Source: a phage. Taken from it: 757 nt of DNA. The stretch is taken from sequence record DQ372055.1; one strand, given 5' to 3'. Below, one piece after another: positions 1 through 757 of the stretch. Made by a program: the position numbers and the translations under genes. Every line of letters starts with the position of its first letter. The stretch's first letter is position 1. The notes below the pieces were generated by a model, which saw only the letters and a list, made by a program, of their open reading frames with translations, had not been told where the DNA came from and did not search any database.

Positions 1-106
1 TGACGACGACATGGCTCGATTGGCGCGACAAGTTGCTGCGATTCTCACCAATAAAAAACGCCCGGCGGCAACCGAGCGTTCTGAACAAATCCAGATGGAG
101 TTCTGA
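1..106 (+). CDS. cII: cII transcriptional activator, C-terminal fragment (5' end outside window; codon phase starts at nt 2; stop TGA 104-106)
   Basis: Frame starting at nt 2 translates to [34 protein letters not shown], which matches the C-terminus of phage lambda CII as I recall it. Not in the ORF track because it is truncated by the window edge. Identity is recalled, not computed. Confidence 0.88.
52..78 (-). terminator. Rho-independent terminator of the oop-type antisense RNA (minus strand)
   Basis: Read on the minus strand: 5'-CGCUCGG-UUGCCG-CCGGGCG-UUUUUUAU. A 7-bp GC-rich stem (six Watson-Crick pairs plus one G-U) formed by nt 72-78 and 59-65, loop 66-71, then a U6 tract (plus-strand A6 at 53-58). 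On the plus strand the run of A precedes the hairpin, so it terminates only leftward transcription. Position within the cII 3' end matches the lambda oop terminator. Confidence 0.6.
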
Positions 107-129
107 GGTCATTACTGGATCAATCCACA
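52..129 (-). ncRNA. oop: oop-like antisense RNA (about 78 nt), antisense to the cII 3' end and the cII-O spacer
   Basis: Terminator at 52-78 on the minus strand, and a candidate promoter on the minus strand that places the transcription start near nt 129. Length and position relative to the cII stop match lambda oop. The 5' end is inferred, not observed. Confidence 0.5.
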
Positions 130-135
130 GGAGTA

Positions 136-164
136 ATTATGCCAAAACAACTCAGTCCTGACCA
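136..164 (-). promoter_or_regulatory. Candidate po-like sigma70 promoter for oop (minus strand)
   Basis: Minus strand reads TGGTCA (plus 159-164; 4/6 to TTGACA), a 17-nt spacer, then CATAAT (plus 136-141; 5/6 to TATAAT). Predicted start is about 7 nt downstream, near plus nt 129. The -10 overlaps the ATG of the small ORF on the opposite strand. Confidence 0.4.
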
Positions 165-285
165 GGACAAATTACACAAAAACATACTACGTGATCGGTT
201 CTTATCCAGCTTCAAACAGCCTGGTCGATTTCGGGCTGAGTTGGAGAAAGTGAAGCTAATACTGAAGAGGAAAGGTCATGAGTAA
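139..285 (+). CDS. Hypothetical small basic protein, 48 aa: [48 protein letters not shown]
   Basis: ATG at 139-141 is preceded by AGGAG (129-133) with a 5-nt spacer. This is the same initiation context that lambda uses for O, about 32 nt after the cII stop. Open for 48 codons to TAA 283-285; the other two + frames are closed across this stretch (stops at 134-136, 159-161, 251-253, 257-259). Composition is 8 K + 5 R against 3 D + 3 E. The stop overlaps the O start codon. No homologue recognised. Caveat: a 48-codon open frame arises by chance about 10% of the time. Confidence 0.45.
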
Positions 286-757
286 TCTTGCAACAGTTAC
301 ACCGATAAAACCTCATCTGGAGGTTGTGGAGCATCGCGTGGCAGAACTCGACGATGGCTACACCCGGACTGCAAATACACTGCTGGAAGCTGTCATGCTT
401 TCTGGGCTTACTCAACATCAGCTACTGATTGTTATGGCTGTGTGGCGCAAGACATACGGTTATAACAAAAAAATAGATTGGATCGGAAATGAACAGTTCG
501 CTGAACTCACTGGCATGGCGCCAACCAAATGTTCTACCGCCAAAAACGAGCTTATCAGAATGGGGGTTCTCACTCAGGTGGGGCGTCAGGTTGGTATGAA
601 TAAAAATATTTCCGAGTGGAAGACGAAGGTTAACGGATTCGGTAAAACATTTACCAGATCGGTAAAACTAACCTTCACCAAATCGGTAAAAACCAATTTA
701 CCGAATCAGTCAAACACAAAAGACAATATACAAAAGACAATAAATACAAATACCCCC
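278..757 (+). CDS. O: Replication initiation protein O (lambda O family), N-terminal iteron-binding domain; 3' end outside window
   Basis: ATG 278-280 is preceded by GAGG (267-270) with a 7-nt spacer. It is the first ATG after in-frame stops at 251-253 and 257-259, and the frame stays open to the window end (160 codons). Translation [65 protein letters not shown]...NELIRMGVL...GMNKNISEW...TKDNIQKT aligns with lambda O from residue 1 as recalled (MTNTAKI..., DLDDGYARLSNMLLEA, LRKTYGWNKP, NEAKLELVRM, GPNKNISEW, TKDTITKE). Iterons lie inside the gene, as in lambda. Confidence 0.88.
637..706. repeat. Origin iteron array: three dyad-symmetric O-binding sites built on TCGGTAAA / TTTACC half-sites
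   Basis: Forward half-site (A)TCGGTAAA at 639-646, 659-666 and 683-690. Inverted half-site TTTACC at 650-655 and 697-702, and a degenerate TTCACC at 674-679. The outermost 10-mers, ATTCGGTAAA (637-646) and TTTACCGAAT (697-706), are perfect reverse complements. Forward half-sites are spaced 20 and 24 bp apart. Position inside the O N-terminal-domain coding sequence mirrors lambda ori. A possible degenerate fourth site, GGTTAACGG, lies at 628-636. Confidence 0.7.
716..742 (+). repeat. Perfect 13-bp direct repeat ACAAAAGACAATA (716-728 and 730-742) in the A-rich tract right of the iterons
   Basis: Identical 13-mers one nucleotide apart (period 14). They sit in a strongly A-rich, strand-asymmetric tract (707-757) in the same place as the A/T-rich unwinding region next to the lambda iterons, which as I recall has the related motif ACACAAAAGACAC...ACAAAAGAAAAAAG. 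Confidence 0.6.

Follow-up and report, generated by a model that had tools for sequence, protein, structure and literature searches.

The Small Open Reading Frame between cII and the Replication Initiator Gene

A 757-nucleotide (nt) stretch of phage DNA (sequence record DQ372055.1, referred to as the window in its full length) was analyzed with respect to a small open reading frame (ORF) located between the 3' end of cII and a gene of the lambda O replication initiator family. Direct reading of the window yields a 48-codon ORF at 139..285 on the plus strand, which terminates with TAA (283-285) and is preceded by AGGAG (129-133) and a 5-nt spacer in front of its ATG (139-141). Its end overlaps the O-family gene, whose ATG occupies 278-280, by 8 nt within the junction ATGAGTAA. 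The cII stop codon (104-106) and the ATG of the ORF are separated by 32 nt, which equals the distance between cII and O in lambda (cII end 38653, O start 38686). The deduced peptide contains 13 K/R versus 6 D/E residues, corresponding to a net charge of +7. The sequence statements of the initial annotation of the window all proved correct. Furthermore, its proposal that the ORF uses the O initiation site of lambda agrees with a five-way alignment, in which the initiation site of the ORF, ACAGGAGT[A/C]ATTATG, is the site used by lambda for O. Approximately 140 nt holding the ORF are absent from lambda. The gene starting at 278 was assigned to the Pfam family Phage_rep_O (E = 2.7e-38); its residues 18-153 are colinear with residues 19-152 of lambda O (43% identity), and its first 17 residues show no similarity to lambda O. 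Coordinates of all features are compiled in Table 1.

Table 1. Features located in the 757-nt window (SD, Shine-Dalgarno sequence; CDS, coding sequence; aa, amino acids).
Feature	Position	Strand	Description
cII 3' end, lambda-type, last 34 codons	2..106	+	Pfam Phage_CII, E = 2e-9; stop TGA 104-106; matches lambda exactly up to ~121
oop antisense RNA	52..128 (approximate)	-	Terminator-like stem 82-55 followed by T-run; 5' end ~128; colinear with lambda oop; ends set by homology
SD AGGAG of orf48	129..133	+	Same site serves O in lambda
pO promoter of oop	136..164	-	-35 TGGTCA 164-159, -10 CATAAT 141-136; 9/12 matches, upstream TG
orf48 CDS, 48 aa, DUF2740	139..285	+	Identical to P22 Orf48 / YO48_BPP22
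5' arm of predicted long-range RNA helix	185..203	+	orf48 codons 16-22 (...L-R-D-R-F-L)
3' arm of predicted helix	267..284	+	Initiator SD GAGGA 267-271, ATG 278-280 and codon 2; within the final orf48 codons
Replication initiator gene, 5' part (P22 gene 18, lambda-O family)	278..757 (runs off the window)	+	Phage_rep_O; 100% identical to P22 gene 18

Judged by its sequence, the ORF is the long-annotated gene orf48 of Salmonella phage P22 and not a new gene. The window is 100% identical to P22 DNA from 114 to 757, and the encoded peptide is 100% identical to P22 Orf48. In the P22 records X78401, AF217253, BK000583 and NC_002371, orf48 is annotated immediately 5' of gene 18 and overlapping it, with the oop promoter on the opposite strand across the orf48 start. 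Many other records call the same ORF a DUF2740 protein, and its annotation is missing in some (BTP1, ST64T, HK022). The exact peptide is deposited in Swiss-Prot as YO48_BPP22 ('Uncharacterized 5.8 kDa protein') and was found on at least 1000 contigs. It matches Pfam DUF2740 (PF10872) with 98.3 bits versus a gathering cutoff of 27 (E = 2e-28, model positions 1-43 of 43) as well as PHROG 1913 (E = 1.3e-26). Annotated homologues exist in HK022, HK630, mEp043, mEp235, Sf101 and Erwinia phage Midgardsormr38, and further ones are H0097 of VT2-Sakai ('bacteriophage HK022 Orf48') and orf66 of the Shiga toxin (Stx) 2 phage 86.

The initial description of the ORF as unannotated and without a recognizable homologue is superseded by these entries. 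Likewise, the difference between P22 and lambda is already in print: lambda was described in 2012 as lacking the orf48 found in P22 between oop and gene 18 (PMC3349717). The ORF itself adds nothing new, having been present in P22 sequence records for decades and possessing its own Pfam family. No paper giving orf48 a function was found in the literature, where queries for DUF2740 and hkaW returned no relevant match; elsewhere, orf48 is named merely as a component of cloned fragments.

Two database labels were rejected. PHROG 1913 carries the label 'tail protein', which appears to be an annotation error: the gene is always located in the early region between cII and the initiator gene, and no fold match was obtained in PDB or BFVD. 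This label has spread to RefSeq entries, among them P22 (NC_002371), NC_047875, NC_019723, HK630, mEp043, Sf101 and others, and since it is still spreading there, it calls for correction. Moreover, an equation of orf48 with gnarl1 of the accessory-gene screen by Silas et al. was discarded; that name is a library index for a lytic-phage gene encoding a different protein.

Coding Conservation and Predicted Structure of Orf48

The frame of 47-48 codons was retained in 149 of 150 related loci taken from viral contigs and genomes, the lone exception being a 386-bp contig labelled Xanthomonas pisi. It is kept across phages of Salmonella, Escherichia, Klebsiella, Cronobacter, Citrobacter, Enterobacter and Erwinia, and the identical P22-type protein is encoded by nine different nucleotide versions. 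For 64 unique sequences, the ratio of nonsynonymous to synonymous substitution rates (dN/dS, Nei-Gojobori) was 0.27 in the annotated frame versus 1.8 and 1.0 in the other frames. Two diverged subfamilies showed values of 0.22-0.28, the second of them, with the consensus MPKKTRFYQASVHKNIARDRFIKS.NP....KLRAILEELKRKE.GHE, yielding 0.22; in this subfamily analysis the other two frames reached at least 0.8. Members sharing only 27-45% identity with the window protein retain the length and the core HKNxxRDRF. Based on the retention of the frame in 149 of 150 loci and the synonymous bias confined to the annotated frame, orf48 is regarded as a genuine coding gene. The family is narrow, comprising 15 clusters in 1.84 billion representatives in a profile search, and includes no characterized relative.

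These results also bear on the assumption, mentioned in the initial annotation, that the ORF might be a non-functional recombination scar or simply a chance open frame. An open frame of 48 codons has a chance of about 1 in 10 in a stretch of such length and is by itself weak evidence; in addition, the window is a mosaic of lambda and P22 DNA whose junction lies just upstream of the ORF at 114-121. Conservation of the frame across phages of the host genera named above and a dN/dS of ~0.25, well below 1 in the annotated frame only, refute this explanation, whose probability is practically negligible. The same evidence bears out the view that a genuine small gene, conserved and located on the early rightward transcript, lies in the approximately 140 nt.

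AlphaFold2 modelled Orf48 as two helices (residues 7-25 and 28-44) with a mean predicted local distance difference test (pLDDT) score of 81. The structure prediction envisaged in the initial annotation thus provided a two-helix model, but no relative, as Foldseek found no match to this model in PDB or BFVD. A profile search of PDB sequences gave chance matches only (E >= 0.67), and Orf48 had no match in NCBIfam. The single sub-threshold microRNA match in Rfam was rejected as a chance hit.

Several irregular database variants of Orf48 were observed. Apparent compensated double frameshifts occur in P0050, P0055, P0060 and P0073, single frameshifts in the fragments P0072 and P0076, and one variant is fused to c1. 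The frameshift variants lie at homopolymer runs and may be sequencing errors. The double frameshifts might have indicated that translation counts whereas the peptide does not, but since intact ORFs are called preferentially, they were not used as evidence. Furthermore, in three loci from a helicase-seeded sample (L385, L361, L404), ATGs located further upstream allow the DUF2740-like ORF to be extended N-terminally to 72-78 aa, and Cronobacter records annotate forms of 76-77 aa; the conserved portion comprises the last 48 codons.

Association of the Small ORF with Helicase-Encoding Replication Modules

In order to classify the surrounding modules, viral contigs were scanned for the conserved 15-nt SD site and the gene following the initiator gene was then assigned to a family. 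Three arrangements were found 3' of this site, namely an O-type initiator gene directly, a DUF2740-like ORF of 47-49 codons, or an unrelated ORF of 53-55 codons. Where a small ORF was present, the partner gene always encoded a phage helicase (162/162 resolved loci in 17 combinations of initiator cluster and partner), belonging either to one of two DnaB-like classes or to the Toprim-DnaB_C primase-helicases. Loci lacking it invariably had a loader as partner, namely lambda P (PF06992) or a DnaC/IstB-like protein (PF01695), as observed for all 28 of them in 6 combinations. In a second sample, seeded on a divergent DnaB-B-class helicase independently of the small ORF, each of the 73 usable loci carried a small ORF overlapping the initiator start. 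A survey of cII-O junctions, as suggested in the initial annotation, hence places the insert in helicase-type modules and shows it to be absent from loader-type modules. orf48 is a fixed part of one replication-module class and not the occupant of a variable accessory ('moron') slot.

This distribution affects the suggestion of the initial annotation that the ORF occupies a slot for anti-defence or host-takeover factors. In its general form, Orf48 would be the product of a 'moron'-like accessory gene acting in anti-defence, host takeover or the lysis-lysogeny decision, for which a small basic protein expressed early from pR by a gene adjoining cII and oop would be suitable. Its presence in every sampled helicase-type module, always overlapping the initiator gene, does not correspond to variable cargo. 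In addition to the missing NCBIfam match, no match to Orf48 was obtained with PADLOC at E <= 0.1, a library of defence genes that does not include anti-defence genes. Moreover, Hayes et al. (PMC3349717) reported that a lambda/P22 hybrid with orf48-18-12 remained responsive to OOP via cII; a phenotype of orf48 was not assigned. An accessory role of this kind is considered very improbable.

The Stop/Start Junction and a Predicted Long-Range RNA Helix

Every small ORF found stops over the start of the initiator gene, the overlaps being ATGAGTAA/G (8 nt), ATGA (4 nt) or ATGGGCGTCGTTAA (14 nt). Behind the DUF2740 ORF, the junction GGTCATGAGTAA is nearly universal whichever initiator follows, and because it is kept, otherwise unrelated initiators encoded at this position all begin with MSN.

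In the minimum free energy fold of the window, the initiator start is predicted to be paired with the interior of orf48. CGUGAUC (190-196) pairs with GGUCAUG (274-280), which includes the AUG of gene 18 opposite orf48 codon 18; UUCUU (199-203) pairs with the gene 18 SD sequence GAGGA (267-271), and positions 185-188 pair with 281-284. Folding 57 distinct family variants separately placed the initiator start opposite the Arg codon of the conserved motif in 50 of them, and in controls this pairing was found in 24% of cases after synonymous recoding and in 2% after shuffling of the codon order. In an alignment of 37 sequences, 78.9% of the helix cells were paired, as compared with 35-54% when the partners were slid by 1-3 columns. 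The covariation score of the helix was 0.21 versus 0.03-0.13 for the slid versions, and none of 500 shuffles reached the observed score. In variants starting with GUG, the paired Arg codon is CGC in four sequences and CGU (G-U wobble) in three, and CGC never occurs opposite an in-register AUG start. In a register-shifted subfamily, UUGCCC pairs with GGGCAA at the same place. Moreover, the ribosome-binding region of the initiator is predicted to be less accessible than that of the small ORF in 53/57 variants (mean unpaired probability 0.26 vs 0.48). The unrelated ORF of 53-55 aa showed equivalent pairing in 13 of 16 native sequences, compared with 28% of recoded and 7% of shuffled versions.

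Since several nucleic-acid signals overlap the gene, its conservation could derive solely from these, i.e., from pO in codons 1-9, the RNA structure, and the initiator SD and start in codons 43-48, with the peptide being a by-product of a translated spacer. In accordance with this explanation, the P22-type group shows a dN/dS of ~1 in codons 2-9, where the gene overlaps pO. Moreover, GGTCATGAG dictates the C-terminal KGHE, and the residues with the highest conservation, R-D-R-F, fall on the 5' arm of the helix. The plasmid leader cistrons tap and repR are likewise described only as frames coupling rep translation (PMC5717011, PMC8053102). On the other hand, the bias is specific to the frame: dN/dS is lowest in codons 16-22 (0.07-0.13), with a high proportion of synonymous differences (pS, 0.37-0.50) there, and amounts to 0.22-0.24 between the RNA arms, the other frames showing values of at least 0.8. 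In addition, subfamilies at 27-45% identity keep both residue pattern and length. Conservation due to nucleic-acid signals alone is therefore judged decidedly unlikely.

Two further observations concern the genes following the junction. In many P22-like phages (L010, L008, L002), a replication-initiator-like protein of ~300 aa (MSNISNLAEAREARR...) without a Pfam family above threshold is encoded in place of the O-type initiator. In L088 (~3137-3740) and L274, among others, the DUF2740 ORF and the initiator gene are separated by an inserted gene with a T5orf172/MUG113 domain. This inserted gene takes over the ATGAGTAA junction, its product also starts with MSN, and a DnaD/HTH_36-type initiator then follows.

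Proposed Role of orf48 in Initiator Translation

Based on sequence comparison and RNA modelling, orf48 is proposed, with moderate confidence, to represent the first cistron of the replication operon in helicase-carrying lambdoid phages and to be translationally coupled to the initiator gene. Ribosomes would initiate at the strong AGGAG-N5-AUG site, which in lambda serves O, translate 48 codons and terminate at the UAA overlapping the initiator AUG. In untranslated mRNA, the SD and AUG of the initiator would be locked in the long-range helix with orf48 codons 16-22, whereas translation of orf48 would melt this helix and bring the terminating ribosome to the initiator start. Synthesis of the initiator gp18 would thereby be tied to translation of orf48. 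That such coupling operates in vivo, as well as the reason why helicase-type modules use it, is what we infer. The Orf48 peptide probably matters in its own right, either as a basic two-helix protein in trans or as a nascent chain, because its sequence is under purifying selection.

A number of points weigh against the proposed coupling. No paper testing orf48 translation or its coupling to gp18 was found in the literature. The initiator gene has a good SD sequence of its own and may be partly translated independently, and purifying selection on the peptide is unexpected for a pure coupling leader. Concerning the RNA, the helix tested on the alignment was taken from the window itself, which inflates the percentage of paired cells. 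The RNAalifold consensus of the 37-sequence alignment does not contain the long-range helix, which was therefore tested explicitly and, with recoded sequences as controls, by folding each variant separately. For window positions 120-300, the fold z-score is only -1.72. When accessibility was compared with synonymously recoded versions for each sequence, the native sequence lay below the recoded mean in 11 of 12 cases, only four of them at <=6/100, so that the individual comparisons are weak; in the case of the P22-type sequence, occlusion was equal or stronger in 21 of 100 recoded versions. The sequences compared lack phylogenetic independence, so that the numbers given exceed the number of separate events; moreover, the sample covers only lambdoid phages of Enterobacterales and was partly conditioned on the conserved 15-nt SD motif.

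A different explanation is that Orf48 is mainly a trans-acting replication accessory of modules encoding their own helicase, for example a minimal cofactor in loading of the phage helicase, or an antagonist of the host DnaB/DnaC pathway affordable only to phages of this type. Ordinary operon packing would then account for the overlap with the initiator gene. Its perfect co-occurrence with phage helicases and absence from loader-type modules would fit this role, as would the purifying selection at the amino-acid level, which extends outside the RNA arms, and the confident model of a small basic two-helix protein. On the other hand, the identical P22-type Orf48 precedes unrelated initiators, either the O-family gp18 or a protein of ~300 aa without Pfam family, and is also paired with different helicase families, which argues against a partner-specific adaptor. 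The same position next to the same partners is also taken by a second, unrelated family of small ORFs, and co-evolution with any one partner is thus not apparent. Furthermore, neither sequence nor fold comparison matched Orf48 to a loader or an inhibitor. P22 phagemids with cro-c1-orf48-O-P are stably maintained in Salmonella (PMC8585504), which indicates that Orf48 is not grossly toxic. A predominantly trans-acting role is compatible with coupling and is considered possible, at a clearly lower probability than the coupling itself.

A more far-reaching combination of both would be that helicase-type lambdoid modules need a short first cistron, drawn from either of two unrelated families and never found in loader-type modules, which gates the initiator via a masked ribosome-binding site, while its basic two-helix peptide also acts in trans, e.g., by helping to load the phage helicase or by antagonizing the host DnaB/DnaC route. 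This generalization is tentative and appears doubtful at present. No paper describing the helicase-module rule or a trans function of Orf48 was found in the literature. Neither the association of small ORFs with helicase modules nor the masked initiator start was found there, and both may be new.

If both patterns hold, i.e., the strict link to helicase-encoding modules and the masked initiator start that translation of the small ORF would open, they would account for a feature conserved in P22, HK022, Stx-converting phages and many prophages of Salmonella, Klebsiella and Cronobacter. In that case, control by a leader cistron, as known from plasmid rep genes, would also apply to phage replication. 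In practical terms, orf48 should be retained in P22-based replicons and phagemids.

Comparison with Known Phage and Plasmid Systems

The closest known counterpart is P22 orf48 itself, which encodes the identical protein, has identical DNA from window position 114 and occupies the same slot between cII/c1-oop and the initiator gene. The window differs from P22 in the upstream neighbour, as the cII end and oop are of the lambda type here, whereas P22 carries c1.

Among plasmid replicons, the leader cistrons of R1 (tap-repA), IncI2 (repR-repA) and IncI1/IncB (repY-repZ and repB-repA) are alike in that a short ORF lies just 5' of the initiator gene with its stop over the initiator start. In these systems, translation of the initiator depends on translation of the leader, and an antisense RNA gene adjoins the leader (PMC5717011, PMC8053102). 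With 48 aa, Orf48 is about twice as long as the plasmid leaders (~19-24 aa). Classical plasmid leader peptides are generally dispensable in trans, and the purifying selection acting on the Orf48 peptide (dN/dS 0.22-0.28) sets it apart from them. In R1-type systems the antisense RNA blocks the leader, whereas oop (~128 to 52) stops 1 nt before the SD of orf48, overlaps neither this SD nor the ATG, and has cII as its target. Plasmids carrying oop plus ori-lambda did not inhibit the lambda/P22 hybrid with orf48-18-12 (PMC3349717). By analogy, orf48 may work like a coupling leader; it is not classed as a member of that group.

The ORF of 53-55 aa, represented by ES18 gp58, ST104 orf27, Nil2, Stx2 phage 1717 and probably a 162-nt ORF of HK97, shares with orf48 the slot, the SD site and the exclusive occurrence in helicase modules. 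The overlap of its stop with the initiator start amounts to 14 nt, and the ribosome-binding region of the initiator is predicted to be paired with its codons 13-22. No protein homology to DUF2740 was detectable past the first 11 residues, which overlap pO DNA (hhalign probability 6.7%). Members of this family (MTKRRKKYQEKEEIRHPDSPEGLVVAAANNRAFAERLVGVYRLAKAGVKHGRR; e.g., L241, L309, L360) belong to no Pfam family and were observed in 97 phage records. The O initiation region of lambda is characterized by the same site, located 32 nt after the cII stop with the -10 element of pO on the opposite strand. In lambda and in other modules with P-type or DnaC-type loaders, this site opens the initiator gene directly, without a small ORF.

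Further Features of the Window

The pO promoter is the sole sigma-70-like site in the window, and its position equals that of the annotated pO of P22 (record positions 32346-32374); in record BK000583, the oop terminator and promoter are annotated as 'similar to phage lambda'. The -10 element of pO is the reverse complement of the orf48 start region. At 161-166, ACCAGG is almost invariant in all small-ORF families. A perfect palindrome, GTCCTG-GT-CAGGAC (155-168), overlaps the -35 element of pO; its core ACCAGG is widespread, and the whole palindrome was found in the P22-type subgroup only.

The window is lambda-identical (cII end, oop) up to ~121 and P22-identical from 114, and a crossover is therefore placed in the shared CTGGATC. 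None of the retrieved loci and no complete E. coli genome was found to include the window in full. This mosaic junction is of the same kind as that of the lambda-cI857(18,12)P22 hybrid of Hayes et al. 2012 (PMC3349717). Within the initiator gene, four iteron-like direct repeats of ~22 nt (core ATCGGTAAAA, spacing 20-24 nt) are located at 626-714. They are followed at 716-743 by a tandem ACAAAAGACAATA(T/A), and this region corresponds to the origin annotated within P22 gene 18.

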